DNA from: Escherichia phage vB_vPM_PD06
Sequence record: NC_052653.1
Reading direction: 5' to 3' (one strand)
DNA: 64,000 nt
A program made the position numbers and the translations under genes. The notes beneath the pieces were generated by a model, which saw only the letters and a program-made list of their open reading frames with translations, ran no database searches and was not told the DNA's origin. Shown piece after piece: positions 20,401 through 40,115 of the stretch. How positions within the stretch are numbered: position 1 is the stretch's first letter; the number at the start of each line of letters is the position of its first letter.

Positions 20401-20805
20401 GCTGTTGACTTTTTTGTTGATGACTGGAAAAATAAGTCATTCGTTCAACAAATGATTGCATATCACGATGAAGCACAGCTTGAAGTAACTCGTGATCTGG
20501 TGCATTTTAAATGGTTCTCTAAAGAATCTTTAGGTTGGACTCAAGTTGATGATCCAGAAGAACAAAAGAAAATTGATAAAGAATGTTTGGATAAAGTTAA
20601 TGCCTGGAAAGAAGAGGAAGAGAAACGTACTGGCAAGATTTGGGCTAACGTACATGAATCTCCGAAAGGTGGTTGGTTTACAGCCTACAGTCGTGCTGGA
20701 GAATTAGCATCTATCGCTGTTAATAAAGCTGGTGAGTATTACAATCTTAATGTACCTCTAACTGCTGGTTACGATGTTGGTAGTTCATGGTCAACTTGTC
20801 ACTGA
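17491..20805 (+). CDS. family A DNA polymerase with 3'-5' exonuclease domain, interrupted by an intein
   Basis: FDIESN (Exo I DxE); polymerase motif A DFDSLEAKIESHY; motif B RRISDTIGRKF...KYGITYGA; motif C AYHDEAQLE. A 245-aa Hint/LAGLIDADG insertion lies between motifs A and B. Confidence 0.85.
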   Translation: MGAFTFDIESNNLLNDESVDYLASPYRLKDSFAMHCIVCESHDTGEIIAFHDGDKYLFDGRPYIETDGKYEYRLEEYEHLEYTHFPLKDFPDFVNGTGKFKGNSNYKITKVVGHNIINFDLLAIKLFFKLNYSIKYNTWGNSNIEICDTMILSKTLNPDRFGGHSLAELSKKAGGDVKIDFRKNIPETERFRTFAADMLYYCIYDNKANTAVFRYLMEEWGDYNKWSEPFNLEQRVADIITRQEHRGFAFNMKQAEDNIRDLDARMEACRLEAEPVLPPKPATKGYLKSFIPPKLQFKKNGEPSSNMIKFAEKHSGELVQKEDGWWLFALGKEFKLPIPAEEPICDPTVPATLDDTTHIKNWLVGLGWSPSEYKDKDITLKSGTKIKKDEAQMEKAIRDYVDQTLASNFCQDRCDHLECTPETLEWKLRDRIAKAKGRGVKVLTNPSFTKGQEKDICPNLEALGEKFPYATQIVQYLTYKHRRNSILGGGADWEEDEEDYDKGYLAAVRADGRIPTPAATCDAATSRMKHRLVANIPRVTSLYGYEMRNLFGVEVPKYFQIGYDFDSLEAKIESHYCVPMDAQALTRKGWVGYHDLQEGDEILGYNPETGLKEWTKVKGKVFYKNSKTFEIKGKSHTYRATADHRWYVNTRSTGNTYVPKVRTTAELCTGDNIICNAPFNMEQDQVNSLTSVQQGKWDVPWVERVVNMSHAERVAFLEGFLIADGYWHKHKQKPVWRWAQNPGELFEAALTASYLVHGGNISVAFNTKDQKVKVATLANRSHIPVQSLTIEEWGVEDVWCPQTELGTWVMRQKDCITITGNCWRYEQEPHEYCNALLLEKPNDVHTMMARRISDTIGRKFERSPAKSVKYGITYGAQAAKVAKTIGSDMYTGQLVYDAFWEAAKPLALLKERLHDFWVKTGKKYILGIDGRKVPTRSAHAILNSLFQSGGVICAKRAMVIYDDLIEEEGLAVDFFVDDWKNKSFVQQMIAYHDEAQLEVTRDLVHFKWFSKESLGWTQVDDPEEQKKIDKECLDKVNAWKEEEEKRTGKIWANVHESPKGGWFTAYSRAGELASIAVNKAGEYYNLNVPLTAGYDVGSSWSTCH
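19219..19953 (+). mobile_element. intein with LAGLIDADG homing-endonuclease domain, inside the DNA polymerase
   Basis: Starts at Cys (CVPMDAQALTRKGWVGYHDLQEGDEIL, Hint block A), block B TADHRWYV, LAGLIDADG-like ERVAFLEGFLIADGYW, ends ...ITGN followed by Cys. 735 nt = 245 codons. Removal joins motif A directly to CWRYEQ. Confidence 0.7.
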
Positions 20806-24617: not shown

Positions 24618-24629
24618 GATAAAAGAAAA

Positions 24630-24654
24630 GGAGCCAATAGGCTCCTTTTTGTTT
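24630..24654. terminator. bidirectional terminator between convergent early and late arms
   Basis: GGAGCC-AATA-GGCTCC hairpin flanked by an A-run upstream and a T-run downstream; separates the last plus-strand gene (ends 24617) from the first minus-strand gene (ends 24653). Confidence 0.55.
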
Positions 24655-26539
24655 ATGTAACATTGACTGTAAATCTGACAAGAGGTGATAACACGTCATT
24701 ATCAGCATCATAATGTGCAACATCAAACACTGCTGTACCTGCTGCAAACCCGTATTGTTCAACCTGATCTGCATAAGTAAATGTGTAAGTGTTAGTATCA
24801 AGAGTTTGTTCTGTAAGAATTGCTGCTGTGAGGACGTTTACATTTCGGAAGTAATGTTTGGTATATCCTGCTGGTTCCCAAGAAATAATTGCATCTTGGT
24901 TAGCTTGTCTTACAGCGGCTCCTCCTGTTGGAACAGCCATATCAACCCAAACAGGTGACGTTGATGTTAGGTCTGTACCGTCTGCTGCTGATTTAGCAAG
25001 TTTTGTAGCTGCTGTCTGGTATATAGAAGAAATATAATGGATACGACCATCAATACCTTCTTCATAAACATAACCACTGTAGCGTTCAGCACCATCCACC
25101 CAAGAACCAATGATAACATCGTCACGTGCTGTAGAGATGGTTCTTTGTACATTTCTGTATTTCTGCCAATCCACACCATTAACTTCTACACCATATAGAT
25201 AAGAACGTCCTAGGATCTGCCAAACAATTTTTGCTTGAGAAGCAGGAACTATTGTACGCATCTTATCAAAGATAGCTATCGTAGCATCATGGTAACGTGT
25301 AGTGTTACTGTATCTACCTGCAACAGTCGAAGATGCTGATACAGCATCATTTTCACCTTGTCCCCAAATAATTGCTTTAACCTTACTTGCATAAGGTGTG
25401 ACTTTAGTGATAAAGTTAGTTAAGCATGGCCCGTCTGCTGTGTTATCCAGATCATACCAGTAGTTGTCTGGTGTACCTGTTCCGGCTTTATCATCTGCAT
25501 ATTTATCTGCTGCTGACGATCCAGAAGCTGCATTTAACGGAAGAACTTCAGCATTTGCTAAACCACGTTGCGTAGCATATGCATTACGGGTTGTTGTGCT
25601 ACTCATTGCTGCTTTATTTGCACCAGATAATTCTGTAAAGTGTGCATTTACGTTATCTTGTCCAGCAAAGACAATAACTTCTTTAATGAATGAATCATCT
25701 GTAGCTATTGAGTTATTAAAGATAACGGCTGCTGCTTTGGTGCTCTTAACGCTAATTTTAAGGTATGTTGGAGCAAACCCATAAAGAGGAATAGAGTCAG
25801 AGATATCAAAGTAGGCGTAAGTATTCGTGGTTGTTGTAGTCCACTGGACACTGTTATTACTTAAATCTAATACTTCTACAGTATAAGTATCACCATCTAG
25901 CGGATCAGCTACATCCCAAGCAACACGAATGTCTCCATAGCTGTTTGCCACGGCTGTTACATTAGAAATAACAGGAACAGCATTAACACCTAAATAAGAA
26001 CTATCAGAGGCCACCACTGTTCCTTGATAAGTTGCAGTGCAACCTATACGGCAACTGCCATCTTTAAGAGCAGTTATTAATCCTGTAGGACTTACAGTAG
26101 CTACTTCTGGATCTGTTGTGGTGTACGTAATTACCATATCTGGAAGGTCTTTAGCACCTTCTGGACTGATTGTAGCAACCAATTGTTGAGTAGTTCCTGC
26201 ATCCATAGCAGACAGACTTTCAGTGTACACACTTAATTCTGAAGCATAGCCACCAGATTGATCAGTTAAGACAGCACCTAAATTATTTTTAGCTGTCATT
26301 ATTGCATCAAAACCGCCTTCAGCAACAAACTCCATCATACCGTTATTATCTATAACCATTTTGGTATTATCTGAAGATGAAAAAGCTATATCAAATAACG
26401 CACCATCTTCTGGTGAAACTGTGTATGTCAGTTGCTTTTTACTACCAACTATTGCAATACCAATAGAGGAAGTGGTTATAGATGTAGCTGTTACTACTGA
26501 AGCTGATGTTGTTGACATAAATAAAGGAATAGGATACAT
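24653..26539 (-). CDS. tail fibre/spike protein with Ig-like (Big_2-like) repeats and an SGNH/SASA-like esterase domain
   Basis: N-terminal Ig-like repeats (LTYTVSPEDG..., VATISPEGA...VITYTTTDPEVATVSPTGLITALKDG); central blocks FAGQDNVNAH, IIWGQGENDA and DGRIHY resemble sialate-O-acetylesterase/SGNH blocks, but Asp replaces the expected Ser in the first block. Confidence 0.5.
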   Translation of the reverse strand: MYPIPLFMSTTSASVVTATSITTSSIGIAIVGSKKQLTYTVSPEDGALFDIAFSSSDNTKMVIDNNGMMEFVAEGGFDAIMTAKNNLGAVLTDQSGGYASELSVYTESLSAMDAGTTQQLVATISPEGAKDLPDMVITYTTTDPEVATVSPTGLITALKDGSCRIGCTATYQGTVVASDSSYLGVNAVPVISNVTAVANSYGDIRVAWDVADPLDGDTYTVEVLDLSNNSVQWTTTTTNTYAYFDISDSIPLYGFAPTYLKISVKSTKAAAVIFNNSIATDDSFIKEVIVFAGQDNVNAHFTELSGANKAAMSSTTTRNAYATQRGLANAEVLPLNAASGSSAADKYADDKAGTGTPDNYWYDLDNTADGPCLTNFITKVTPYASKVKAIIWGQGENDAVSASSTVAGRYSNTTRYHDATIAIFDKMRTIVPASQAKIVWQILGRSYLYGVEVNGVDWQKYRNVQRTISTARDDVIIGSWVDGAERYSGYVYEEGIDGRIHYISSIYQTAATKLAKSAADGTDLTSTSPVWVDMAVPTGGAAVRQANQDAIISWEPAGYTKHYFRNVNVLTAAILTEQTLDTNTYTFTYADQVEQYGFAAGTAVFDVAHYDADNDVLSPLVRFTVNVT

Positions 26540-26559
26540 TTAATCTCCTTAAATAATAA

Positions 26560-26576
26560 GCCCCCGAAGGGGCTTT
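26560..26576 (-). terminator. hairpin with T-run on minus strand
   Basis: GCCCC-CGAA-GGGGC inverted repeat; on the minus strand it is followed by TTATTATTT, downstream of the collagen-like fibre gene. Confidence 0.4.
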
Positions 26577-26578
26577 GA

Positions 26579-28549
26579 TTATGTGCGTTTAGCAACAATA
26601 GCATCCACGTAATCGCCAACACCACAATATGTTAGTTGTAGTATTGTTACTCCGTTAGGATCTGTATTAATATCACTGGAACCAATTACTTTGTAAGATG
26701 GATCTAAAGTAACAGTACGACCTCCAGTGGCATCTTGGATAAGATAAACTATTGCAGAGAATGGTTTAGGTTTTGTACTATCTTCGACACCAGGCCATGC
26801 TTTTATAGTAGCGTTACCAGTAAGATTCAACACATTCATGTTATGTGTTCCTGGAGGTGTCCAGTCCCCTGTAACAGAATTGTTGGTATATGCTGTAACC
26901 TCTATAAAATTAGTTGTTACTTTTGTTGGAACTATATCTTGACCATCTACAGAATTAGTGAGTTCTTCCCATGCCCCATCTTTACGAGCATAAGTCTTAC
27001 CATCACTAGGTGCATCTGTGATACTAGGTAGTGTACCTTGAGAAGTCCAGACAGTTGCAGATGTTTTTAAGAACACCTCGCCAGTGGAGATATTAAAGGC
27101 ATAATCACCTTGTTTACCATCACTAGAGATTGGATCTGTTGTTTTAACAATCCAAGTTGCACCGTCTGTACCGTTAGTACCAGCGTCACCTTTCTCACCT
27201 TTTTCACCCTTATCACCTTTCAAACTACCCATATCTACATATTCAGCAGTTTGAGTTTGTTCATTATAGGTGTAAATGTAAAGATGACCTGTATCTTCCG
27301 TCAGATAAGCATCACCGTAATTGGCTGTAGGAGGAAGCGCACTTGCAGACGCAACGTGTCCTTTTGCAGTGATTGGAGTACCAGCTAAACGACCAACATT
27401 TGTCCACTCTGTGGCTCCTTGCAACCAGACCCAAAGTTCATTATTGATCAGATAACCATCACCCTCTTCTCCAGTTTGTGGTAGTTCAGAAGTGTTAGTC
27501 AGAATGTCAATAATGGTCAACCCTGCACCAGTTGGCCCCGTCAAGCCTTGTATACCCTGTGCACCTTGATCACCCTTGTCTCCCTTATCACCTTTTTCTC
27601 CTTTCAGAGAGGCAATATATTCGTCAATAGTACCAACGTTACCAGCATTTAACCAGACTTGATAAGCTGAATCACCAGTGTTACCCTTATCACCTTTGTC
27701 GCCTTTATCTCCTTTTGGCCCCACTATAGCACCCATATTGATCCATTCTACACCGTTTGACACGTATAGATATGTACCAACACTCCATGCTTGAGATGTG
27801 TTTCCATGAGATGCAGAAGGAAGATCTGAAACGGAATTAGCTGCGCCTTGGTAATCAAAACCATTAGCATTATTACCTGGCACACCTTGTGGCCCCTCTG
27901 GGCCAGGCTCCCCTTTATCACCTTTAATTGAAGCAAGATAATCTAGTTCTGTACCTTCATTTCCTGCTGCAAGCCATACTTCATAAGCAGATTTACCTTC
28001 TGGCCCCTGTGAGTTTACTTTTCTCCAAGCAGTACCATCCCAAGCATACATATTCTCGCCTACAATCCATGCATCCCCTGCATTGTTTCCACTTGTAGGT
28101 AATTGGTTGGTATTAGATAGTGTCCCTAATAGCTTTAATGGAGCACCTGGATCACCTTTTAAAGAAGCCAACCACTGTGTCTCAGTACCTTGGAAACCAT
28201 TGTCTACGGCAATCTGGTAAGCTGATTTACCAGCTTCTGGGATGGATTCTCTAAGATCTTCAATTTCAGCTTCAATAGCATCTAATTCTGATTCTATTTG
28301 AGCAATGTCATCTGCATTACCCACATTTTTCCAAGCTGTATCTGAAATCCCTCCAGTAGATGTAGGAGTAGAGTTAGCAGGTACAACTTTAGGTAGAGAA
28401 CCTTTCCACTGATAGTAGTTACCGTCAGCTTCAAAGAGCAATGCTTCACGAGCATCTCTTAAGGTAAAACCACTTGCAAAACTTCTACGCTTTCTATAGC
28501 GAGACTCTACCATGTCTGCAATGGCACTATTTGGACGTGTTAAAATCAC
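26579..28549 (-). CDS. tail fibre protein with collagen-like G-X-Y tracts and internal repeats
   Basis: G-X-Y tracts GPKGDKGDKGDKGNTGD, KGEKGDKGDKGDQGAQGIQGLTGPTGAG and LKGDKGEKGEKGDAGTNG; three copies of a SAY(Q/E)VWL.AGN.GT...Y(L/I)AS(L/I)KG module; four copies of an LP..G....W..G module. Confidence 0.7.
   Translation of the reverse strand: MILTRPNSAIADMVESRYRKRRSFASGFTLRDAREALLFEADGNYYQWKGSLPKVVPANSTPTSTGGISDTAWKNVGNADDIAQIESELDAIEAEIEDLRESIPEAGKSAYQIAVDNGFQGTETQWLASLKGDPGAPLKLLGTLSNTNQLPTSGNNAGDAWIVGENMYAWDGTAWRKVNSQGPEGKSAYEVWLAAGNEGTELDYLASIKGDKGEPGPEGPQGVPGNNANGFDYQGAANSVSDLPSASHGNTSQAWSVGTYLYVSNGVEWINMGAIVGPKGDKGDKGDKGNTGDSAYQVWLNAGNVGTIDEYIASLKGEKGDKGDKGDQGAQGIQGLTGPTGAGLTIIDILTNTSELPQTGEEGDGYLINNELWVWLQGATEWTNVGRLAGTPITAKGHVASASALPPTANYGDAYLTEDTGHLYIYTYNEQTQTAEYVDMGSLKGDKGEKGEKGDAGTNGTDGATWIVKTTDPISSDGKQGDYAFNISTGEVFLKTSATVWTSQGTLPSITDAPSDGKTYARKDGAWEELTNSVDGQDIVPTKVTTNFIEVTAYTNNSVTGDWTPPGTHNMNVLNLTGNATIKAWPGVEDSTKPKPFSAIVYLIQDATGGRTVTLDPSYKVIGSSDINTDPNGVTILQLTYCGVGDYVDAIVAKRT
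27163..27721 (-). repeat. collagen-like triplet-repeat coding tracts
   Basis: On the plus strand, runs of CACCTTT/CACCCTT/ATCACC units (reverse complement of GGT GAT AAA GGT) at about 27671-27721, 27521-27604 and 27163-27223. Confidence 0.6.
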
Positions 28550-28567
28550 TTTACTACTCCTTTTATA

Positions 28568-28590
28568 AAGGGGCGAAAGCCCCTTTTAAT
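28568..28590 (-). terminator. hairpin GGGGC-GAAA-GCCCC between tail fibre genes
   Basis: Same hairpin as at 17405-17425, with A/T-rich flanks on both sides. Confidence 0.4.
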
Positions 28591-31004
28591 TAAGCATTAT
28601 TGACAGTAACAAAAGTAACAGGGTTCAGAGCTTTAATTTGTGTATTCTCTGCTGTAGGTGTTACAATTGGATCTGCAATATCTATTGTGTACAAACTATT
28701 TGTCACATATGTAGCACGTGCTATAGTTGTCACAAGATCGCCGCCATTTGCACCTGCACCTGGAATAACAATCTTAGTACCTGCTGCTTTAGCGTAGCCA
28801 TTACTAGCCCAGTTTAAAGCATTAGACTGTAGATAGGTTTGACCTGTAACAGTTGCTTTTATTTTCTCATTATCACTAAAGAAAGCACCACCTGCTGTAA
28901 CAACGTGTTTTTTACCGCTTGCACAATGAATAACTGTTCCAGTAGGGAAGTCACGCCCACCTGGGAATTCATCATAATCTGTAAAATATTGTTCAGAAAT
29001 AGTGGTTAAGACTGGCCCACGATGACCTGTACCATCAACAGCAGTTGGAACACCAAAGTTATTTCCAACCTGATCGCAACGATCCGTGTAGATTTTAGCA
29101 AAAGAAACTGTTGTTTCATCTCCGCTAAGTGCTGTACATCCTACCCACTTCATATAAGTGAATTGGCTGCGAGTATAGAAACCGCCACCACTTCCTTCTC
29201 CGCTCCCGTGTTGACCAATAAAGTCAATACTACGGCAACGAATATTATTAAAAGTAGAGCTAGATGGTAGCCCACGCCATTTAAAATCATTACAATTGAT
29301 GTTACTAACAATTGTAGAGTTTTCCCAGGCGTCTGATCCAGCCGTTGCAATCTCAATCGAAGATTCTGGAATATCCAAATTCTTAATTGTAAAGTTAATT
29401 GGTGGCCCCGCATATCTTCCACCGTTAACACCCCAGTCAATAAAGACCATGCGTGTTGAAACAGACGGATCATTAAGCAGATAACCAGTTAAACCATCAA
29501 CTTCAAAGTCTTGGCATCCGTATAATGCAACACCACAAGTAGTTAAACCTGTACCTGTTGAAACTGCTGTGTTAGGATAAACTTCGTTATCACGTATTGT
29601 GAAGTTTTTACCCATTTCAACGTGTAGACATTGACGGCAATTGTAAACTCTATTTCCAACGATACTGAAGTTACGTACATATTGTGAATCAGGAGCATCA
29701 ACACCATATGGGCCACTACCTGCTACACCAATACCAATACCCCAGTTTGCACCTTGTCCAGAAGCATCTACGTTAGCAATGTGGTTATTCTCGATGATCA
29801 AACCTTCAGTGTAGTGTCTTTGAACTACGTTAAGTTCAATAGCATCACCTTTAATATCGTGAATATAGTTGTTAGAGTAACGCCCATAGGTCATTACTTC
29901 TCCAGTACCTTGTTGCAGGATCGCATATTTACAACCATACATTTCGTTGTAACTGAAGTCCAACGTACCTTCACTTGTCATTGCTTGCATTAAAAATGCT
30001 GCTGTAGATGTTGCGTTGGAGAAGATATTACGATAGAATCGGCAATCACCACCTAACATCTTAACATAACATTTTTCAAAGCGAACGTTTTCAATCCAAC
30101 AGGACACAGTAGAAATCATTGTTCCACCGTTACCAGTGAATGTACCACCATACCAACGAATACCAGACATAGCAATTGAGCTTGTGAATCTATAATTCTT
30201 ATCTGCACGTACTTGAATGTTATTCGTGTTAGCGAAAGTAATGGTTTTTAGAATTGCTTGAGTATCATCGGTAACTCCATCACCAATTGCACCAAACTGC
30301 TCAGGCGTTACAAAGTATTGAGCTTGTAACAGGTTGCCTCCAGATGGAAGACCAACCATTGCTGCACCAGTGGTAGATGACAAAAGGTTTTTCTCTACGT
30401 AAGAAGTAGAGGCTGTTGTTTTACCAATAAAAGCAAACAATTTGTTAGGTAGACCAGTAGACGGATCTAAACCTAATGGTTCTGCCAGAATAATTTTACT
30501 ATCTTTGATAGTAAATGCTTCACCTTGAATCTGAATTACACCGTTAATGGTGACAATAGCATTATCAAAGATATAAGGAGGACTGATTTCTGTTTCATAT
30601 CCTGTAGCACCTTTAAAATACCAAGGATACACATCTGAAGCTAACTGTTCAGTTTTAAGAGCGTACAGAGTCCAGTTACTGTCCCCTACAGGTGTGCCCC
30701 GCATAGGTACAGGGTTCGCAGTAGTGGCAGATGGGGCATAATAGTACCCACTCAAGATACCGTTTTCAAAATAACGTAACTGGTTAAATACAGTTTCAGT
30801 TGATCCTGCTGACCAAGCAACAGGACTCTTAAAGAAGAAGTTATCAACAAGTGCTTTACGCAGTGTAGGTATTAAACCTGTTTCGGTTTCTACAGTTGCT
30901 GTAGCATCCCCATTAATAACATCATGCATCTGGTTAGACGAGAATATAACCAGATCAACACCTTGTTCTAGTGTCGTAGCAGGATATGTTGGAAAATTCG
31001 CCAT
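28590..31004 (-). CDS. tailspike protein with parallel beta-helix (pectate-lyase-like) fold; depolymerase candidate
   Basis: 804 aa with periodic short Gly/Asn/Val/Ile-rich repeats typical of right-handed beta-helices (NNYIHDIKGDAIELNV, IIENNHIANVDASG, FSIVGNRVYNC, FTIRDNEVYPN). Confidence 0.55.
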   Translation of the reverse strand: MANFPTYPATTLEQGVDLVIFSSNQMHDVINGDATATVETETGLIPTLRKALVDNFFFKSPVAWSAGSTETVFNQLRYFENGILSGYYYAPSATTANPVPMRGTPVGDSNWTLYALKTEQLASDVYPWYFKGATGYETEISPPYIFDNAIVTINGVIQIQGEAFTIKDSKIILAEPLGLDPSTGLPNKLFAFIGKTTASTSYVEKNLLSSTTGAAMVGLPSGGNLLQAQYFVTPEQFGAIGDGVTDDTQAILKTITFANTNNIQVRADKNYRFTSSIAMSGIRWYGGTFTGNGGTMISTVSCWIENVRFEKCYVKMLGGDCRFYRNIFSNATSTAAFLMQAMTSEGTLDFSYNEMYGCKYAILQQGTGEVMTYGRYSNNYIHDIKGDAIELNVVQRHYTEGLIIENNHIANVDASGQGANWGIGIGVAGSGPYGVDAPDSQYVRNFSIVGNRVYNCRQCLHVEMGKNFTIRDNEVYPNTAVSTGTGLTTCGVALYGCQDFEVDGLTGYLLNDPSVSTRMVFIDWGVNGGRYAGPPINFTIKNLDIPESSIEIATAGSDAWENSTIVSNINCNDFKWRGLPSSSTFNNIRCRSIDFIGQHGSGEGSGGGFYTRSQFTYMKWVGCTALSGDETTVSFAKIYTDRCDQVGNNFGVPTAVDGTGHRGPVLTTISEQYFTDYDEFPGGRDFPTGTVIHCASGKKHVVTAGGAFFSDNEKIKATVTGQTYLQSNALNWASNGYAKAAGTKIVIPGAGANGGDLVTTIARATYVTNSLYTIDIADPIVTPTAENTQIKALNPVTFVTVNNA

Positions 31005-31345
31005 TAATTTTTGTCCTTACTTTGTGTGCGCTTTGTAATCTCCTCTAGCATTAATTGAACAGGAGCATTTTTTAAATCCATTATTTTTTCAATCTTCTGT
31101 TCTAAGGCAGTATTATTTGCCATTAATGTAGAGTTGATCTGGTTAAGCATTTGAGCAAGTTCTGCTTTGGTAGCATAAGTGGATTCAACAAACACCAACT
31201 TCTTTTCTAGTTCACGGTATTTCTCTTCCATTTTGTCCAAATCACTTGCCATATCATCTATCTTCTGTTTGAAGACCACCCAGATTACACCAATAAGAGG
31301 GATAATCGCCTCTTTAGCGATATCCCATACTTCTGTTAGCTCCAT
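31004..31345 (-). CDS. hypothetical protein with N-terminal transmembrane helix and coiled coil
   Basis: AIIPLIGVIWVVF hydrophobic segment followed by a charged helical region. Confidence 0.4.
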   Translation of the reverse strand: MELTEVWDIAKEAIIPLIGVIWVVFKQKIDDMASDLDKMEEKYRELEKKLVFVESTYATKAELAQMLNQINSTLMANNTALEQKIEKIMDLKNAPVQLMLEEITKRTQSKDKN

Positions 31346-31354
31346 ACATTACCC

Positions 31355-31906
31355 CTATTTCTTAGGTCTTGTAGGCCAAGTTATATTAGGTGCATCTTCA
31401 ACGTTAATTTGAATCAGTGTTGCACGATATAGTTTAACTTTTCCTAACCAATCTTTTTGTTCTTGAGATAAACCTTGTAATTCCTCTAAATCTTGAATCG
31501 CAGACACTTGATTCGTAGCCCAAGTTAACTCCTTTTCTAACTTAAGAGTAGCATCTTCAATAGCAAGACTATTGTGAGGAACAAATTTACCTTCAACATA
31601 TTGCCAAGAGCCAATATTACTTTCATCTTCTATTTTATCTGGTGCATTATATGTAACTAAAATAGATTGTCCGGCAGGGAAATAGGTAGTAACATCTTTA
31701 GTAGCACCACGTACAATATTATTATCATCTAAGGTAATGAAATAAGCGTCGGGATATTCAGCCATCAAAGTTTTTTGAAGTTGATACCAATCATTACCAT
31801 CCTTGTCTTGCAAAAAACCACCGCCAACAGAAAGATAAAGAATGTTCTCCTCTGTTAATTCCGGTTCGTACAATTCAAAACCTGTAAAAATAACATCTTT
31901 TTTCAT
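31355..31906 (-). CDS. hypothetical protein (tail-associated by position)
   Basis: ORF track and location among fibre genes. Confidence 0.4.
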   Translation of the reverse strand: MKKDVIFTGFELYEPELTEENILYLSVGGGFLQDKDGNDWYQLQKTLMAEYPDAYFITLDDNNIVRGATKDVTTYFPAGQSILVTYNAPDKIEDESNIGSWQYVEGKFVPHNSLAIEDATLKLEKELTWATNQVSAIQDLEELQGLSQEQKDWLGKVKLYRATLIQINVEDAPNITWPTRPKK

Positions 31907-31915
31907 AGACTCTCC

Positions 31916-32899
31916 TTATGAAACGTTGGTTACTGTTATCCAGCTACCATTAATATAATATTGTAGCGGGGCTGACCAATACCAAGCACCACGAAGTTCT
32001 TTCTTATCACCAAAGCCCCAACCTGTGATCACGTGACCAGCATAGAAACGAGACTCGGACACACCAGCTTGGATACGTGCTCCTAGACGGATAGAAGACA
32101 CAACAGAAGAAACTCTATTGTTAATGTTATTAATTTGGCCTTGCAAGTTGCTATTAACGTTGTTAATATTATTTTGCAGTGTACTTTGCAATGAGTTTAG
32201 TCTTGAGTTAAGATAATCTAATCTTACAAGAGCATTACCATTGCCAGTATCTTGACCAGAATTAGAACGAGGATTGTCTATTAAAACATAACCTGCATCA
32301 TACAAACGGACTCCACAAGATGTTCCTCCAGTAGATGGATTTATTCTATAAATATAGAGTTGACCACCTGCACCTGGTTCAGAAGACATATTGCCTACTG
32401 TTTGTCCATTATAGTTTCTAAAAAATAATGTTGCAGGATCTGTAGCACCTGTACCACAAGTGTAAATATCACCTGCATAGATAGCACCACCATTATCACG
32501 CTTAACAAGGACATTCCCTACAACTTGGCTTGATGTTGCGTCTGTAATGTTAGCTGATAAGTGATTGTGACTGTTATCTACGACTTGAATAGATAATGTT
32601 ACAGCAGCATTACCATTCCATGTAACTTCACCTGTAGCATCACCTGCCATTGTAATTTTAGTACCGACTATAGGAAGATATGTCGTAGGCAATGTTGGGA
32701 AGAATTCATCTTGCATATAGCGAATCCAAGACCCAATATTGTTTAAGATCCAGTTCATTTCTTCACAAGTCATAATCTGACCAAAGTCCATACCGACATT
32801 ACGGATGGTTTCTTTTGGTCTAATCTTGTTTGTGTTTCCCGTTCCTGGGAGGGTTACTGTTTGTGTCGCCCAGTCAGGGTAGTATTGTGGCTTTGCCAT
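31916..32899 (-). CDS. putative tail fibre protein
   Basis: Asn/Gln/Ser-rich coiled segment (NINNVNSNLQGQINNINNRVSSVVS) and Gly-rich beta-like regions. Confidence 0.45.
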   Translation of the reverse strand: MAKPQYYPDWATQTVTLPGTGNTNKIRPKETIRNVGMDFGQIMTCEEMNWILNNIGSWIRYMQDEFFPTLPTTYLPIVGTKITMAGDATGEVTWNGNAAVTLSIQVVDNSHNHLSANITDATSSQVVGNVLVKRDNGGAIYAGDIYTCGTGATDPATLFFRNYNGQTVGNMSSEPGAGGQLYIYRINPSTGGTSCGVRLYDAGYVLIDNPRSNSGQDTGNGNALVRLDYLNSRLNSLQSTLQNNINNVNSNLQGQINNINNRVSSVVSSIRLGARIQAGVSESRFYAGHVITGWGFGDKKELRGAWYWSAPLQYYINGSWITVTNVS

Positions 32900-32912
32900 T
32901 AAGGGTAACTCC

Positions 32913-33542
32913 TTATTCTATTTGAGCTATCAGCATAGTCATTCGCCCTGTATCATCTCCTTCAGCCTCTGTGTAAAGAGAACCTAAACCACCTATACCA
33001 TGAGGTGGATTTGTGGCATAATAGGAAGTGAAACCAAAGGCTGAACCCGCTTTCGCACCTAAGCGATAACTACTTAGGATCGGGAAAACGTTAAGTAACT
33101 GTGCTACTGCCTGATCGGATTGTAGACACAAATTATAAAAGAATACGTCGAATGTTTTATTTAATCCAACGTATGTATTAATCGTTTCTTTTTCTGTTCC
33201 TGTAAAACGAGCGAACATATCAATGATATCATCTCGCGTACCAGAAGACGCAACACGATAAGCCCTGATTTTTAATATTGTACGATACTCTTCATCTGTA
33301 GCACCATTTCTTTCCATCCCCATTTCTTCACCAATAAGATCTAAATACTTACCAGTTGCAGTAGAGATTAAGCGGTGTTTGGCAAGATAGATCATTGCCT
33401 GATCTATCTTTTGTTTTTCGCTAGAAATGATATAGAGTAGTTTGACAATGTTCGGAGAAGATTTAAAATCTTCAATCAGTAGGTCTTTAACATCTTCATT
33501 GATACTATCCCACGTTGTCACATGGTCAACACTCACTGCCAT
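32913..33542 (-). CDS. hypothetical structural protein
   Basis: ORF track; late module. Confidence 0.4.
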   Translation of the reverse strand: MAVSVDHVTTWDSINEDVKDLLIEDFKSSPNIVKLLYIISSEKQKIDQAMIYLAKHRLISTATGKYLDLIGEEMGMERNGATDEEYRTILKIRAYRVASSGTRDDIIDMFARFTGTEKETINTYVGLNKTFDVFFYNLCLQSDQAVAQLLNVFPILSSYRLGAKAGSAFGFTSYYATNPPHGIGGLGSLYTEAEGDDTGRMTMLIAQIE

Positions 33543-33544
33543 TT

Positions 33545-35032
33545 TTAGACTCCGTACTCGTAGGAAATATTATCAAGGTCAAAGGATGGTACAACATTGT
33601 ACGCTGGAGTAATATCTCCCTCATTATATTTACTGTCATCCTCAGTATTAAGTTTAACATAAACACGGAGAGAAGTCAAGCGTCCGAACGCAAGTGCAGA
33701 ATAAATTACACCTTTTATCTGATCGTTAGTTACTGTTGACCCTAATTCAAAATAAGCCTGTAAGTTTGCAAGAGCAGAAACAATATTTTCCCTTTCTGTT
33801 GTACTTAACACACTACCATTGCCAGTTTGATACACCAGTTTAAGCGAGTATTCCGCATTATCCCCAGGAGAAAAACGAATTACTTCTTGACCACCATCTT
33901 CTGTTATGATAGTAATTGCTGTTGTACCATAGGTTAAGGTGTTAATAGGCTTAGTATTATAAATAACCTGTGCAACTTCTTCTGCTGTACCACCATACAC
34001 AATAGTCTGGAATGTCATAGCTGGAGCATGTTCCTGATCATGTAGTGTAGGGTTATCATAAATCTTAACCTTTGTCACACCATCTGTCAGTAGTAGAGCT
34101 TTAACAATAGCAGCACGAGTAGCAGCATTAGCTTCATCCATATTATCATTGAAACGAGAGCGGAATTCTGCATCTGTTTCAACATCCGTACCTGGAGAGA
34201 ATGGATAGAAGTTACCTGTATCTAAAAAGCCTGTAAACGTTGAAGAAATACCTGTAATACTTTCTGTACCTACTGGATTATAACCAACGTCTGAACACGT
34301 AACTGGAATTTCACTCCATTTTGTACCAATTGCAATAGATGCGTAAAATTTCACTGGTGTTACTAGACCTATTGGGTTAACATTATCTTCTGGATTATAA
34401 CCCATATAAACATTACTAGCATCATTCCATACTAAAGCACGATCTGTTGTTGATACGTTAGCTTTAATGAAATTCGTGAGATCTAAAATAAAGTTTGTAT
34501 TGCTAGGACTTAATGTTTTACTGTTAAGACCACCATCAATAGCACTTTGAATGTAGAAAGTAATAGAAGTTTCACCAGAAGCTGTTGCGTTTGCTTTAGA
34601 AATGGTGTATGCTCCAATCTTAGCATTCAACATTGTTGGTGCACTGACATAATATGTCAAATCGTTATCGGCATTAAAATAAACATCTGTGCTTAGCTCA
34701 TAAGTCCAAGCTGCCTTATTGTTAGATTTAACATAAGCATGACCACTACCAGCAGAAGCAGCTTTACGATAAAAACCTCTTTTAGAGAAGATTTCATCAA
34801 GGTAAATACCTTCTGCACCATCTAAGGTTTGGGTATTGTAAACACCTTGCATACCTTCCCAAAGGGTGTAATCTGTGTATGCAATAATACGGAACAGTTG
34901 ACCAAAGACAGTATCTTCAGATGTAGCTGTATCTGCACCGAAAGTGTTTTTCAATGCTGTCATATAATTATTTAAAATATCATCAAACGTTGGAATTACA
35001 AAACCAGCATCTGTTAAACCATAATCTGCCAT
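33545..35032 (-). CDS. hypothetical baseplate/tail structural protein
   Basis: 495 aa; translationally coupled to the next gene; late module. Confidence 0.4.
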   Translation of the reverse strand: MADYGLTDAGFVIPTFDDILNNYMTALKNTFGADTATSEDTVFGQLFRIIAYTDYTLWEGMQGVYNTQTLDGAEGIYLDEIFSKRGFYRKAASAGSGHAYVKSNNKAAWTYELSTDVYFNADNDLTYYVSAPTMLNAKIGAYTISKANATASGETSITFYIQSAIDGGLNSKTLSPSNTNFILDLTNFIKANVSTTDRALVWNDASNVYMGYNPEDNVNPIGLVTPVKFYASIAIGTKWSEIPVTCSDVGYNPVGTESITGISSTFTGFLDTGNFYPFSPGTDVETDAEFRSRFNDNMDEANAATRAAIVKALLLTDGVTKVKIYDNPTLHDQEHAPAMTFQTIVYGGTAEEVAQVIYNTKPINTLTYGTTAITIITEDGGQEVIRFSPGDNAEYSLKLVYQTGNGSVLSTTERENIVSALANLQAYFELGSTVTNDQIKGVIYSALAFGRLTSLRVYVKLNTEDDSKYNEGDITPAYNVVPSFDLDNISYEYGV

Positions 35033-35277
35033 TAATTATCCTCCTTATCAGGGGCAGGTGATCTGCCCCAACGTAAATCTATTAAATTCTTCATTAGTCT
35101 GGATGGTGTGATCATAAAAACAAAAGCCCAGCCCATCCATTCAGGAATTTCTTTATCAATTCCCAAATAAATAAACATACTGGACATAACAATCATACCA
35201 ATAGCATTCCAAACTTTAGTAGAACTGACTTTATTATCAGGATATGTACAAAACATACCTATTAAAAATTTTCTCAT
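35032..35277 (-). CDS. small membrane protein, two predicted transmembrane helices
   Basis: 81 aa with two hydrophobic segments; could be holin-like, unproven. Confidence 0.35.
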   Translation of the reverse strand: MRKFLIGMFCTYPDNKVSSTKVWNAIGMIVMSSMFIYLGIDKEIPEWMGWAFVFMITPSRLMKNLIDLRWGRSPAPDKEDN

Positions 35278-35582
35278 GGTGCGTTCTCATTACTTTTTAA
35301 ATCACGATATACAGCTAATTCCCCAAGGTCTACAGAACCCGCTGAATGCACAAGTACAGCAGCACTAAGACTAATGGCAGTAGTACCTGGGGCAATATCA
35401 GCAGGTAGGGAATACGCCCTTTGCGTCTCCTTATCATAGATAACCTTATACCCACCCAAATCCACACCAACTGAGAAGTAAACAACCTCAGATTGTTTAA
35501 CTCCAAAGTGACGGGCTACTGCTTGTTTATTGGTTAAGATTCCGGTTGAACCTTTACCACCTTGGGAGAACATTTCGTTCAT
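35274..35582 (-). CDS. hypothetical protein
   Basis: ORF track; overlaps the next gene by 4 nt. Confidence 0.4.
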   Translation of the reverse strand: MNEMFSQGGKGSTGILTNKQAVARHFGVKQSEVVYFSVGVDLGGYKVIYDKETQRAYSLPADIAPGTTAISLSAAVLVHSAGSVDLGELAVYRDLKSNENAP

Positions 35583-35829
35583 AACAACCTCTTTGTTTTT
35601 CTAAGTAAGCCCCTCTTTGGAGGGGCTTGCAGTGGTAGTGACAACACTTTGAGTTAGTACGATAGTAACTAAAGACAAGATTAACCCTGCTACGATATGT
35701 TTTCATCATTTTATCACATGGCGATGACATGCGCTTGCAGGACATAGTTTGTATGGGTTGTGCGGAATGCCATTTTTGGCCTCTTGTCATCAATAAGTAA
35801 GTATTCATTTCCCCCGCCGAAGCGGGGTT

Positions 35830-37947
35830 TTATATTAAACCATACACTACATTGTGTATTGTTAAACTGCCAATCGAGTTCCCAACATTAAAATTCACCT
35901 CAGCCTTGTATGCTCCTTGAGGGACTGAATCCACTAAAGCATAAAAATTGAATGTGTCGCCTACTGGGATGTTATACCCTATGGAATCCGCAACAGCATT
36001 TCCTTGCTGGTCCAGGAATCTAATTGACGCCAGGGTTGTTGTTAGATTTTTAGCCCAAAAACCAAGCTGAAAATAACGACCAGGCTCACAATCAATGATT
36101 GTTTGGGTGAAATTAGCTGCTGCCTCAGCTGATGGTACAGATAAAACAAAAGAAGTTGAAAACATTAAATCATTAGGAACATCGTTTGCTGTAGTAGCAG
36201 TGACAACTCCTGTTCCAGTTTGCGATAGTGTCCAGTTAGATGTGTTTAAAAACTGTCCTGAGCCATTACTGATGCTATTAATATAAGGGCTTACAATGCT
36301 CCCTAAATTCCAGTTACTTGTGATAAATCCTGCCCGTGGATAGCACCCTCTGGACATTACTTTTTTGCTCGCGCCACCTATCAACTGTCTTGTGGGAAAT
36401 CCAGTAGCAATCGTTGTATTCCCATAGAGGGATAACGAGCAATTATTTAGGCTAACAACCCCATCGCCGTTGCTAACAATAGGTACACTGGTATACCCGT
36501 CTGGGAGTAGTATCGTCGAATTACTGACGGTTAATCGTGAACTGCCCTCCACAGTAAACCCAACGAAACTCTGACCAGGTTGGTACTCAATGTTACCGTT
36601 TGTGAAAACCACTGTTGCGTTATCGGATAGCGCAACAGCAGGGTCAAAATATCCTGATTTTTTACCTGCTGGCAGAGAGCAGCCATCGAATATAAATTGA
36701 CCATTAACAAATGTGAAAGGTCCACCGTTGTCAACCATCCAACAATGATTAAATCTTATAACTTCACCGGAATTTGCTGGTGAATTGAAAATAACAGAAT
36801 TTGTAAAACTTCTGGACAACGCACATTTATCAAAAAGAATACGATATGCATTATCAAGAAACTCAATCCCGGCAGTTGAGATAAACCCACTATTAGAGAT
36901 TCTTAACTCTGATACTTCACCACTGGTAGAACCACCGATAGCCAATTTCCTGGAACCTTTCCCGACGAATGACACACCACTAATCAAAGAAGTTGCGTTA
37001 ATTGCATCTCTGTTAGTGTAATCAGCGCCTGTATTAATGATGGTTAGGTAGTAGTCACCGGTTACAGATGAAGATTCTGTTAAAGTACATTTATTTTTTC
37101 CAATAAGTGCGCCTTTTGCTATGTCGAAAATAATTGGTGTTGTTATCTCTCCTGAAACAGGGACTACACAGTCAAACCCGGCAGCGTTTATTGTGTTGAT
37201 GAATACCGCCAAATCTTCGGTTCCAGTATAACCAGCATCATACACATCCACGGAACCATTGAAGAATTTTCTTTTCCATACCACACCGTTTCCGGGGAAG
37301 GTAACAATATTGTCTATAGCTGTATCCGCGCTAACAGCTACCATAATACCACCACCAAAGTTAAAACCGCTCACATACGAATCAAGTATTATGGAATCAC
37401 CAATTGATCCTGATATTGATGATAACTCAGAAACTGATGATGCAGTTCCTATATAAGACAAGCCATTTGTTTTATTTAAATCACCCCTCAGGGTGGCATC
37501 ACCAACACTAGCCCACGCACTAGGACCAACACCACCGGTTGATGTAGGGGTTGAGTCAGCGGGAACAGCTTTAGGGAAAGCACCACCCCATGTATAGCAC
37601 TGTCCACCTGCAATATACCAAACAGCATCAGTATTATTATTTAATGTAGCACCATCCTCAAAGCTACCATCAACAAGTGTTAACCCCGCTTCAGCAAGAC
37701 TACGACGCCACTGTTCACGATCATTAAGAAGATTGTTATTCAACTCTTCCTGAACAGTATTACCATTTGAGGATTGTATTAAATCTGCTCCATCTGTATC
37801 TTTCAACTGGGTGGCTAAAACCACCCCAGTGTCAGTAAGAAAATTAGAAACTGTGCTTTTAACGGTCTTATCAGGTTGGTCTAAAACTAGGTAATCAGAA
37901 CCATTAACTTTTGATGTTTCCGGTAAATTAGTAATTGTAGTTGACAT
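35830..37947 (-). CDS. tailspike protein (beta-helix-like) sharing an N-terminal motif with the collagen-like fibre
   Basis: CYTWGGAFPKAVPADSTPTSTGGVGPSAWASVG closely matches YYQWKGSLPKVVPANSTPTSTGGISDTAWKNVG in the 26579..28549 protein; the remainder is Gly/Asn/Ser/Thr-rich repetitive beta sequence. Confidence 0.55.
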   Translation of the reverse strand: MSTTITNLPETSKVNGSDYLVLDQPDKTVKSTVSNFLTDTGVVLATQLKDTDGADLIQSSNGNTVQEELNNNLLNDREQWRRSLAEAGLTLVDGSFEDGATLNNNTDAVWYIAGGQCYTWGGAFPKAVPADSTPTSTGGVGPSAWASVGDATLRGDLNKTNGLSYIGTASSVSELSSISGSIGDSIILDSYVSGFNFGGGIMVAVSADTAIDNIVTFPGNGVVWKRKFFNGSVDVYDAGYTGTEDLAVFINTINAAGFDCVVPVSGEITTPIIFDIAKGALIGKNKCTLTESSSVTGDYYLTIINTGADYTNRDAINATSLISGVSFVGKGSRKLAIGGSTSGEVSELRISNSGFISTAGIEFLDNAYRILFDKCALSRSFTNSVIFNSPANSGEVIRFNHCWMVDNGGPFTFVNGQFIFDGCSLPAGKKSGYFDPAVALSDNATVVFTNGNIEYQPGQSFVGFTVEGSSRLTVSNSTILLPDGYTSVPIVSNGDGVVSLNNCSLSLYGNTTIATGFPTRQLIGGASKKVMSRGCYPRAGFITSNWNLGSIVSPYINSISNGSGQFLNTSNWTLSQTGTGVVTATTANDVPNDLMFSTSFVLSVPSAEAAANFTQTIIDCEPGRYFQLGFWAKNLTTTLASIRFLDQQGNAVADSIGYNIPVGDTFNFYALVDSVPQGAYKAEVNFNVGNSIGSLTIHNVVYGLI

Positions 37948-37955
37948 TTTTACTC

Positions 37956-40115
37956 CTATATATAAAATTTTTGTGTTGTTACTAAATCTTCTCCAGATTT
38001 AGTGGCTAATGTAATTCCACTTATAGTGGCAATCTCAACATTTACCTGTTTAAGAGTGATATCTTGCAAGTAGCAATTCAAAGGCACATTACCCATATAA
38101 AACACTTGGGATTTTGAATTAAGAACAGTTATTGAATCATGCATTATTTGTGGGTAAGCCCATATGTATTGATATAAACCAACAAACTTCTGATCATTCA
38201 ATACAATATTACCTATAATCATTTTCCACAAATATGTTCTGTAGTCTGATTCAGGATCAAAGCCATATAATGGTGCTAGAGTTGCGTCTGGAACAAACCC
38301 TGCAAGATAATGTATCTTATCATAACTAAAACCTAGTTGCTCATTAGGTATTTTGATAGCGTCGAAAGATCTTTCCATCTGACCTTCCAACAACCAGTCA
38401 TAACATTCTGAACAATAAAAGTCAAAGTTTTCTGGGATATAATAATCTTTAGGGAAGTTAACAAACTCCATCATACCGTTACCTAAAATGGATGGCACAA
38501 ATGGTAATAATGTAACTTTAGCTCCAGGATAGGCTAATTTAGTATCTGTTGCAAATTTAGCAACACGCAGTCCTAATGTTTTAGATAGGAATGCATAATA
38601 TTCATCATATGGTGTACCAGTTTTATAATTCTTAACTGTACCAACATCTTGTGCATATAATCCAGTTTCATTATTAAATGCAACTTTGGTTGCATAATCA
38701 TAAATACACGGGAGATTGGTAGCTGTGTTATACCACCACCACGGTTCACCAACCTGAATAATAACAGGAAGATCATTGGCAGCGGATATAGAAGCTATCT
38801 TATTTATTACACCTTGTAAATAATTCATCCCTTCATCAATTGAAGGAGATAAAACATAACTTGGTGGCTCATAACCTGTAGCAGCCAGATCATCATTCCA
38901 AGTATGTTGTACCCATTCTACAGGACACACTGTACTCATAAGTTCAAAACTTAAGGAGTTCATTACTGTGTAGCCCATAGCTTTTGCATTAGCGTGGAAA
39001 TTATCAAACCAGGCTTCTGTTGCTGGGTTTAAATATTCTGTTCTATTCAAAGCCCATTTATTAGATCCAGCATCCCAACTAAATTGATAATAGTGTGACA
39101 TACCATTATAATGGTTAATCATATCTCTATAACCTAATCTATAGGTGTTAGAAATAACTCGCTCTGGGGTTAGGTTATACATATCATCATAAGATGTACA
39201 CATTCTTATGGTGTGTGCTGGAACATTTAAATTACCCATATTCATCATACTATAACCCGTATCAGGTTCCAGTATGGTAAACTTAAAGGAAAGATCCTCA
39301 TTGTCTACAGGAATAATATCTTCAATTTCTTGATACCTTGTGGAGATCAAGGAGAAGAACATATTATCTATCTGTGTAGTGTCAACAACAATATCATTTT
39401 CTGGCCCAGATTTTAAATTTGAGAAATCTAATTTTATTGTTGCTGTTTTACCATCCTCTGAAACTTCTTCTGCATAAAAGTTTAGAGATACATAATGAAC
39501 TGTTTCATCCTTCAGTGTCACTGTTAAGGATGGCAATAATTTTTCTTCTTTTAATCCAGGAACACCTTGACTAAGTTCCATTTTAAACCAAAGTTTCTCT
39601 TTACTTAAGTCAGAATGTTCTTGGTAGCCTAATCCTTTGTGATCATATTTATCGTAAGTTGACCAAATAATCCCAGCAAGACCAGCCACTGTCCTATTAA
39701 CCATTCTTGCTGTGAAAGAATCACCATTAGAGATAATAGAACAACTTTCTGTTGCTTGAGAATCTATTGTCCAAAACTTAGGATCAAACATTCTAGACTT
39801 CACAACAGGCCAAGTTAGCGGGGTTGTATTCGATTGATTAGTCGTAATAACACAACGAATTTCTTCATTGATCATCATGTTATTTTGACTTATGCTAGTA
39901 ATCTCAAGAGTAAAATAAAGATCTAAAGAGTTTGCCGGACGTTCATATACATCAACCACCACAGTAGCAGAATCTGCATCAGAAGGGAACGTTACTGTTC
40001 CCTGTTTAGCTACATAATCTCTACCAGCGACCGCCGTTCCATCGACGGTCTTATAGCTGAATGAACTGGCATTTACTCTCGTATTTCGAGTTACAGTAAA
40101 AATAGCCTGTTTCAT
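37956..40115 (-). CDS. large hypothetical structural protein
   Basis: 719 aa; late module. Confidence 0.45.
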   Translation of the reverse strand: MKQAIFTVTRNTRVNASSFSYKTVDGTAVAGRDYVAKQGTVTFPSDADSATVVVDVYERPANSLDLYFTLEITSISQNNMMINEEIRCVITTNQSNTTPLTWPVVKSRMFDPKFWTIDSQATESCSIISNGDSFTARMVNRTVAGLAGIIWSTYDKYDHKGLGYQEHSDLSKEKLWFKMELSQGVPGLKEEKLLPSLTVTLKDETVHYVSLNFYAEEVSEDGKTATIKLDFSNLKSGPENDIVVDTTQIDNMFFSLISTRYQEIEDIIPVDNEDLSFKFTILEPDTGYSMMNMGNLNVPAHTIRMCTSYDDMYNLTPERVISNTYRLGYRDMINHYNGMSHYYQFSWDAGSNKWALNRTEYLNPATEAWFDNFHANAKAMGYTVMNSLSFELMSTVCPVEWVQHTWNDDLAATGYEPPSYVLSPSIDEGMNYLQGVINKIASISAANDLPVIIQVGEPWWWYNTATNLPCIYDYATKVAFNNETGLYAQDVGTVKNYKTGTPYDEYYAFLSKTLGLRVAKFATDTKLAYPGAKVTLLPFVPSILGNGMMEFVNFPKDYYIPENFDFYCSECYDWLLEGQMERSFDAIKIPNEQLGFSYDKIHYLAGFVPDATLAPLYGFDPESDYRTYLWKMIIGNIVLNDQKFVGLYQYIWAYPQIMHDSITVLNSKSQVFYMGNVPLNCYLQDITLKQVNVEIATISGITLATKSGEDLVTTQKFYI

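Follow-up and report, generated by a model that had tools for sequence, protein, structure and literature searches.

The D2 domain as a probable joint and swap point in the phi92-like adsorption locus of Escherichia phage vB_vPM_PD06

Tail genes of Escherichia phage vB_vPM_PD06 were analysed in a 64,000-nucleotide (nt) stretch of its genome (NC_052653.1), here called the window, with a focus on positions 24,630 to 37,947. The phage is a phi92-like myophage (Justusliebigvirus), and this region forms its multivalent adsorption locus. Two of its proteins, a 705-amino-acid (aa) tailspike and a 656-aa collagen-like fibre, share a block assigned by sequence to D2, a subdomain of the tailspike "head" known from the tailspike proteins (TSPs) of phage CBA120. 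We consider it probable that each fibre and spike of this locus has an anchor of its own and that D2 is a joint and a swap point. The spike would be anchored by its first 40 to 54 residues, and its body, of the CBA120 TSP4 type, would have been acquired horizontally.

Results

Identity and gene order of the locus

Over all of its 13.3 kb, the interval has 99.4% identity to Escherichia phage vB_vPM_PD114 (MH675927; Justusliebigvirus, Stephanstirmvirinae). Other phi92-like phages reach 96–98% identity across approximately 81–86% of the interval among the best matches, and in the nucleotide comparison 27 records align to at least 80% of the query at a single place. The gene order is that of PD114, PaulScherrer, and phi92. 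On the minus strand, it starts with a 958-aa and a 719-aa tail protein, the variable 705-aa spike in the slot of phi92 gp143, and small open reading frames (ORFs). Wedge proteins of the gp145/146 type, a short fibre and chaperone of the gp147/148 type, and a lipoprotein follow, and the order ends with the gp150-type colanidase, the collagen-like fibre (Phi92_gp151 in the annotation), and a 628-aa Ig/esterase protein. As expected of a phi92-like locus, a gp150 colanidase and, in the gp143 slot, a variable spike are among the co-encoded fibres and spikes. Features in common with the phi92 adsorption apparatus are the gp141–gp151 order, the gp150 colanidase, a short fibre of the gp147 type and its chaperone, a wedge of the gp145/146 type, and a fibre of the gp151 type.

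A previous sequence-only reading of the window had proposed at least four large fibre or spike genes, two of them beta-helix tailspikes and one collagen-like. All four are present on the minus strand (24653..26539, 26579..28549, 28590..31004, and 35830..37947), and with the genes at 31916-32899 (the short fibre), 37956-40115, and 40124-43000 the receptor-binding-type genes number seven in all. The two beta-helix tailspikes are nearly identical to the crystal structures 6e0v (phi92 gp150; gene 28590-31004) and 5w6h (CBA120 TSP4; gene 35830-37947), and the fibre at 26579-28549 has the collagen repeats (PF01391) predicted for it. The view that several different receptor-binding proteins are encoded agrees with what is known of the group: papers citing Schwarzer et al. 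(2012) describe phi92 and the BASEL isolates as multivalent phages of broad host recognition, with several co-expressed spikes and fibres in the manner of a "Swiss army knife". The gp143 position is known to hold differing spikes in PD06, PD114, and others (PMC7552041).

The shared block corresponds to D2

In an all-against-all comparison of 14 locus proteins, a single similarity was found: residues 23-79 of the collagen-like fibre align with residues 95-151 of the 705-aa spike (BLASTP, 29/57 identical, E 3e-13), far above chance. The block had been called near-identical, which is an overstatement, as 20 of 32 residues are identical in its core and approximately 51% over the 57 aa. At the DNA level, the two copies are identical at 103 of 171 positions (60%), which rules out a recent duplication of the block within the genome. 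A preceding RRS.A..G.TL.D stretch, also said to be shared, does not align in register: the distance from RRS to the conserved tryptophan is 27 residues in one protein and 39 in the other, an offset of 12, and BLAST, HMMER, and MAFFT alike place S23-F24 opposite S95-F96.

The block matches the Pfam domain PF18668 (Tail_spike_N) with 75.2 bits in the fibre (aa 11-77, E 4e-21) and 65.7 bits in the spike (aa 93-150); the cut-off is 25. It is not the low-complexity motif that had been raised as the alternative. A hidden Markov model (HMM) of the module, built without window sequences, matched exactly two of the 369 ORFs of the window, the spike (E 7e-45) and the fibre (E 7e-24), with the next at 0.8. 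The module extends over aa 11-79 of the fibre (28313..28519, minus strand) and aa 75-152 of the spike (37492..37725, minus strand).

By sequence, PF18668 corresponds to D2 in the tailspike head of the CBA120 TSPs. Both proteins match the D2 portion of TSP1, TSP3, TSP4, G7C gp63.1, and several newer structures; those matched by the fibre module include 9vvr, 9occ, 5w6h, and 4oj5. In CBA120 TSP1, the head consists of D1 (residues 12-96) and D2 (97-154), the latter resembling a chitin-binding domain, and a helical neck (155-165) comes next. In an AlphaFold2 model of the spike (aa 1-175), a helix occupies residues 65-86, a beta-sandwich 90-148 (predicted local distance difference test score, pLDDT, 87-95), and a neck helix 150-158. 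This is the fold of TSP1 residues 97-154, an alpha-helix followed by a small antiparallel beta-sandwich. In the spike, the homology to 5w6h runs on through the predicted neck. In the fibre, D2 is directly followed by the heptad-like DDIAQIESELDAIEAEIEDLRESI, which we read from the sequence by eye.

The module is widespread, being found by tblastn in 1612 phage records, among them podo-, sipho-, and myoviruses of Salmonella, Escherichia, Klebsiella, and other hosts. Residues F96, G99, Y118, W120, and P134 are invariant in a MAFFT alignment.

Probable anchor and joint in the gp143 slot

The spike gene occupies the slot of phi92 gp143, a protein treated as a virion tailspike and inferred to form the tip of fibre I (PMC13450770). 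In phi92, the slot encodes an endosialidase, whereas here it encodes a beta-helix spike of the CBA120 TSP4 type with D2. The two proteins are 94% identical over aa 1-54 and have nothing in common beyond, and gp143 has no D2. Another allele of the slot (L006) shares only aa 1-40 with the spike and also lacks D2. These residues define a lineage-specific anchor of aa 1-54 with a core of aa 1-40 (37786..37947, minus strand), which is invariant in a set of 33 alleles with 30 different distal parts, taken from contigs of mostly 140-152 kb.

Column conservation in the 33 alleles is at least 0.96 up to aa 100 and 0.75-0.93 at aa 101-150. In the two blocks that follow it is 0.54 and 0.35, and from aa 171 it stays below 0.2. 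The breakpoints of individual alleles lie between aa 120 and 166, inside D2 or just past it. The PaulScherrer allele, for instance, has two substitutions across aa 1-100 and no similarity after approximately aa 160.

Attachment sites mapped in other phages also lie ahead of D2. Analytical ultracentrifugation of CBA120 proteins showed that the D1 subdomain of TSP1, not D2, contacts XD3 of TSP4. In the virion of the siphophage Sf11, the distal tail protein is bound by residues 4-59 of the spike gp13, with the D2-like part past this contact and a hinge at residue 162. Furthermore, D1-D2 can be internal: in Phapecoctavirus-like relatives (P0192, P0198), it lies mid-protein in a colanidase of 1017-1060 aa, behind a phiTE-type anchor, in the same order as in CBA120 TSP4, where D1-D2 is also internal behind an anchor.

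These five independent grounds (the slot alleles, the conservation profile, CBA120, Sf11, and internal D1-D2) argue against D2 as the attachment domain of the spike slot. From them, we infer that D2 is a joint between anchor and neck and, in the spike, the left-hand crossover zone of the exchanged segment. The earlier proposal of a shared N-terminal module is consistent with the fibre, where the module starts at approximately aa 11, but not with the spike, where it starts at approximately aa 75 behind 74 other residues. The further proposal that the block is a common attachment domain does not agree with slot alleles that lack it or with CBA120 and Sf11 contacts upstream of D2. The sequence-only reading is therefore supported in part: multiple receptor-binding proteins and modular exchange hold, with the block at the junction of a conserved N-terminus and exchangeable distal domains, and the common anchor does not.

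In Escherichia phage outra (L008 1414-3746), also a Justusliebigvirus, the gp143 slot has no spike gene, and the gp142-type gene is immediately followed by a small membrane-protein gene. The slot is therefore dispensable, at least on K-12.

The spike body and its predicted O78 specificity

The 705-aa spike (35830..37947, minus strand) is 100% identical to the tail protein of vB_vPM_PD06 (P0059). Residues 91-705 match the crystal structure of CBA120 TSP4 (5w6h) with 1125 bits. Identity is approximately 50% over aa 91-145 and rises to approximately 90% from there to the end, so that the neck and beta-helix body (35833..37491, minus strand) are of the TSP4 type from approximately aa 146. The same body is found behind N-termini of the P22, T7, Kagunavirus, Gamaleyavirus, and Kuttervirus types. 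CBA120 TSP4 has been shown experimentally to hydrolyse the O-antigen of E. coli O78, and the identical PD06 spike has been placed in the O78 subtype, as a product of horizontal transfer whose anchor is cut at aa 151 (Virol J 2023, PMC10408124). Together, the sequence comparisons strongly suggest that the spike is specific for O78. A hairpin, CCCCGC-TTCG-GCGGGG, lies directly after the spike stop codon (35812..35827, minus strand).

Colanidase and collagen-like fibre

The 804-aa colanidase tailspike, a homologue of phi92 gp150 (28590..31004, minus strand), matches 6e0v over aa 180-804 (1418 bits) and phrog_6117 (colanic acid degradation). Its first 118 residues (30651..31004, minus strand) form an anchor of the phiTE long-fibre N-domain type: aa 12-126 show homology to the phiTE long tail fibre at its N-terminal end (9cuy_g aa 15-130, E 2.4e-18), and PF26208 is found on homologues. 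Residues 14-171 of the phiTE fibre have been modelled on the phiTE baseplate. In a fold comparison, it was the colanidase N-terminus that gave the best match to the anchor/XD region of CBA120 TSP4 (TSP4-N). A beta-sandwich at aa 122-196 (30417..30641, minus strand) is a candidate branching domain of the T4 gp10-like (XD) kind. A search of the 369 window ORFs for XD domains with a Kuttervirus TSP4 N-terminus gave one marginal match only (E 0.042), which was to the colanidase. The stop codon of the colanidase gene is immediately followed by the hairpin GGGGC-TTTC-GCCCC and then TTTAT (28570..28583, minus strand), at the place of the conserved "motif three" terminator (PMC10408124).

The 656-aa fibre (26579..28549, minus strand) is a homologue of phi92 gp151, with PF18668 and PF01391, a full-length match to phrog_15437, and the annotation "Phi92_gp151" in PD114. 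Its gene has the ribosome-binding site (RBS) AAGGAG upstream of a GTG start. Only about 10 residues precede D2, which is followed in order by a coiled-coil-like stretch, a shaft of collagen and other repeats, a foldon-like motif, and a phiTE-type tip. The tip (aa 545-652; 26594..26917, minus strand) matches 9cuy_g aa 686-790 (E 1.4e-6), and PF26209 (Phage_phiTE_241_C) is found on a 60%-identical orthologue. The fibre, including its N-terminus, is kept in 138 phage records, with identities of 96–99% in the genus and 60–72% in Phapecoctavirus-like relatives. A homologue search with fibre aa 1-137 returned mostly short collagen-repeat proteins and a single D2 match. A GC-rich, terminator-like hairpin separates the fibre gene from the 628-aa gene (26558..26575, minus strand).

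Just ahead of the tip, at aa 517-532 (26954-27001, minus strand), the sequence GKTYARKDGAWEEL is similar to the foldon of T4 fibritin (Fibritin_C, E 0.0012; PDB matches to foldon fusions), and this foldon-like motif is likely a trimerisation motif.

Since the colanidase N-terminus and the fibre C-terminus match one phiTE chain, a single phiTE-type fibre is represented by two adjacent genes, one with its N-terminal anchor and the other with its C-terminal tip. In phiTE gp241 (9cuy; PF26208/PF26209), both ends belong to one 793-aa protein, whereas here they are separated by the colanidase body, a terminator-like hairpin, and the D2 module. By sequence, the colanidase and fibre genes look like one fibre gene split by a spike cassette. 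It is a reasonable hypothesis that the fibre N-terminus docks on the putative branching domain of the colanidase, which would fit the observation that fibre II of phi92 joins the base of fibre I (PMC13450770).

The comparison with CBA120 TSP1-4 and G7C gp66/gp63.1 shows both likenesses and differences. The spike D2, the fibre D2, and a stand-alone D1 stub described below are homologous to TSP head domains; the spike body is close to that of TSP4, and the best match to TSP4-N in structure is the colanidase N-terminus. However, TSP1, TSP3, and gp63.1 begin with D1-D2, and no protein here does. The layout of a secondary receptor-binding protein, which in known branched complexes (Ackermannviridae TSP1-4, G7C gp66/gp63.1, KP32 RBP1/RBP2) opens with D1 or with a conserved docking peptide, is accordingly absent: the fibre starts with D2, the spike with a genus-specific segment, and D1 is found only in a separate 102-aa ORF. 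The spike anchor consists of 40-54 genus-specific residues, and XD domains are not detectable by sequence. With a phiTE-type anchor in the colanidase and a short fibre of the Mu gpS type, the locus uses several attachment solutions and not one.

A D1 stub downstream of the spike

The locus differs from that of phi92 in an additional 102-aa D1 stub and approximately 250 nt downstream of the spike. The stub (35274..35582, minus strand) is a stand-alone D1 domain with its own RBS. It matches 4oj5 aa 1-95 (E 4e-49) and 4qnl (E 5e-44), and its identity to the opening 94 codons of CBA120 TSP1 (orf210) is approximately 93% at the protein level and 88% at the DNA level; it is also close to G7C gp63.1. 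Codon changes relative to CBA120 are 19 synonymous and 6 non-synonymous. The similarity takes in the RBS region, starts beside an equivalent hairpin, and ends exactly at the D1/D2 boundary. This hairpin, AGCCCCTC-CAAA-GAGGGGCT (35608..35627, minus strand), lies upstream of the stub and is placed as the hairpin between CBA120 orf211 and orf210.

Compared with PaulScherrer, nt 139-309 of the stub differ by two substitutions only and nt 1-138 are far more divergent. Because the divergence changes at approximately nt 139, the right-hand boundary of the exchanged cassette is placed inside the stub. In other genomes, matching begins at various points in or near it. The stub accompanies a spike with D2 in the window and PD114, in PaulScherrer, and in one further genome (L005), and is missing where the spike has no D2 (phi92 and L006) and where there is no spike (outra). 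PHB05 has a spike with D2 and only the last ~34 nt of the stub, so that a strict rule by which D2 in the spike entails a downstream stub fails.

The simplest reading of these few genomes is that cassettes are captured from tandem spike arrays, the stub being a scar that could serve as a second homology arm. The D1 stub thus looks like a right-hand recombination arm or exchange scar, which may be new: the main text of PMC10408124 uses neither "remnant", "truncated" or "pseudogene" nor any word in "vestig-", and appears not to describe the stub as a second coding arm. Nor does that text appear to describe a second D2 copy in the gp151-type fibre.

The 247-nt gap between spike and stub holds an 84-aa ORF (35554-35808, minus strand) that has no PHROG or Pfam match and is unannotated in PD114; it is probably non-coding cassette filler. 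The DNA of this gap is common to few phages only (ZCKP1, DIJ07P2, and dw-ec).

Other tail genes

The 958-aa tail protein (40124..43000, minus strand) is the counterpart of phi92 gp141 by gene order and belongs to phrog_2871. It is annotated as a lateral tail fiber in PaulScherrer, and sequence searches against Pfam and the PDB gave no match. The 719-aa protein (37956..40115, minus strand) is of the phi92 gp142 type and N4 gp65-like, with Calx-beta, NCTSP_N, and TIM-barrel domains (PF23845, E 4e-82; PF23844, E 5e-21). The baseplate wedge proteins of 209 and 495 aa (32913..35032, minus strand) are of the gp146 and gp145 types, as identified by Baseplate_J, DUF2612, and the phi92 annotation. The short tail fibre (327 aa, Mu gpS/gp147 type; phrog_4465) is encoded with a 183-aa assembly chaperone of the lambda gpK type (Caudo_TAP, E 1e-9) at 31355..32899 on the minus strand. 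In phi92, gp147 forms fibre III, and fibre I attaches to the C-terminal domain of gp145 (PMC13450770).

The 628-aa protein (24653..26539, minus strand) follows the fibre gene. It had been described as an Ig-like plus esterase-like fibre. The Ig-like part is clear (Big_2, E 2e-12), and the esterase part is weak: the match to SASA (PF03629) has an E of 0.004, below the Pfam cut-off, with the motifs GQDN and WGQGEND, and makes it a candidate SASA-type carbohydrate esterase domain. A C-terminal beta domain completes the protein, which is homologous to the N4 gp65-type "non-contractile tail sheath" (9lc0, E 1e-24). It is a short allele, 94% identical to aa 1-628 of a 939-aa PaulScherrer protein, with a 311-aa C-terminal module gone. 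The 628-aa and 719-aa genes match separate parts of the N4 gp65-type sheath (phrog_15324). A convergent gene lies 35 nt from the end of the 628-aa gene, where there is a bidirectional hairpin (24626-24649).

Upstream of the locus, a 1104-aa ORF (17491-20805, plus strand) corresponds to an intein-containing DNA polymerase annotated in PaulScherrer and labelled hypothetical in PD114 (Phi92_gp159). A sigma-70 promoter scan found 57 sites, against 60.7 in shuffled sequence, and hence no excess.

Discussion

The reading that we consider probable can be put as follows. One baseplate would bear a number of trimeric fibres and spikes, every one of them with an N-terminal anchor of its own type. D2 would be a structural joint that links any spike anchor to the helical neck bearing the receptor-binding body. 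Sequence conservation of D2 among many unrelated phages would also make it the place where bodies are swapped by homologous recombination. In the 705-aa spike, the first 40-54 residues would attach to the baseplate of this phage, a crossover would lie inside D2, and everything distal to D2 would be an O78 O-antigen hydrolase of the CBA120 TSP4 type gained by horizontal transfer. A motif at this position has indeed been published as a candidate recombination hotspot in several genera, Justusliebigvirus included (PMC10408124).

D2 could instead be a shared plug through which the spike and the collagen-like fibre dock into equivalent sockets of the baseplate or of a primary fibre. The domain lies near the N-terminus in both proteins, with nothing but about 10 residues ahead of it in the fibre, the literature names D1-D2 a head-binding or assembly region, and the TSP4-N-like N-terminus of the colanidase could supply a socket. 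Nevertheless, we regard such a plug as unlikely, because alleles of the same slot dispense with D2 and conserve merely aa 1-40 or 1-54, the contacts mapped in CBA120 (D1) and Sf11 (aa 4-59) lie upstream of it, and D2 also occurs internally behind other anchors. In addition, the 51% identity of the two copies is low for plugs that fit one socket.

Recombination also figures in a second alternative, in which the block is kept mainly as a DNA-level signal, an element of evolvability with no structural role of its own. Allele breakpoints cluster at the block, and the proposed hotspot is a conserved DNA motif of 44-95 nt that six lytic genera share at this position (PMC10408124). Yet the protein motif is kept while the two copies are only 60% identical in DNA, the beta-sandwich is predicted with confidence and matches crystal structures, and the invariant F96, G99, Y118, W120, and P134 are typical of a fold core and not of a nucleotide signal; we therefore think this account very improbable. 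Lastly, the fibre D2 might be a vestige, left when a colanidase cassette cut a phiTE-type fibre gene, so that D2 of the 656-aa protein would be functionless or the protein would not be assembled into the virion. The match of the colanidase N-terminus and the fibre C-terminus to both ends of one phiTE chain, and of one PHROG profile, is compatible with this. However, the fibre gene has a strong RBS, and the protein is full length and conserved in the genus (96–99%) and in Phapecoctavirus-like relatives (60–72%, N-terminus included), which argues for function and leaves a vestige with hardly any plausibility.

Several points weigh against the joint-and-swap reading itself. The conclusion that D2 is not an anchor holds for the spike slot only, and in the collagen-like fibre, where it is the only globular N-terminal domain, D2 may itself dock. 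Work on CBA120 takes D1-D2 as one "head", with the binding of TSP3 mapped to the head only, and the Pfam name of the domain is "receptor binding N-terminal". The AlphaFold2 models are monomeric, although the domains are trimeric, and spike aa 1-40 are modelled at low confidence. The O78 assignment stands on approximately 90% identity. Finally, a 2026 cryo-electron microscopy (cryo-EM) study of phi92 could neither build fibres I and II nor place gp151 (PMC13450770), and the virion positions that we assign to the individual fibres are inferred ones.

Two extensions of the joint-and-swap reading, taken jointly, are tentative, and we see them as possible but doubtful. In one, D2 on the left and the D1 stub on the right would form a two-armed landing pad. 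The translatable stub would copy the start of the next spike gene in the tandem arrays of Kuttervirus or Gamaleyavirus, and whole "D2-body-terminator-D1" cassettes could enter from unrelated phages by homologous recombination. In the other, the colanidase would be the primary, baseplate-anchored fibre, with a gp10-like branching domain on which the collagen-like fibre docks via its N-terminal D2 as the secondary one, and both would derive from a single long fibre of the phiTE type that a spike cassette cut in two.

Much of the framework is already known: the phage is in GenBank, its tail is of the well-described multivalent phi92 type, the block is a Pfam domain with a described swap-point role, and this exact spike has been assigned to O78. 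Possible novelties are the role of the D1 stub as a right-hand arm, the resemblance of the colanidase N-terminus to TSP4-N, and the division of a phiTE-type fibre between two genes.

For host-range engineering, telling the true anchor (aa 1-40 or 1-54) apart from the portable joint (D2) indicates where to cut. The by-products of the analysis also render a question about phi92 more testable, namely which genes build which of its three fibres. The assignment of genes to fibres is stated as unresolved by reviews and by the 2026 cryo-EM study, whose maps show fibre II joining the base of fibre I without giving the identity of fibre II (PMC13450770). If the primary and secondary pair is real, it would identify this branch, and the D1 stub, the colanidase N-terminus, and the split fibre together suggest, in concrete and testable form, how fibres I and II of phi92-like phages might branch.

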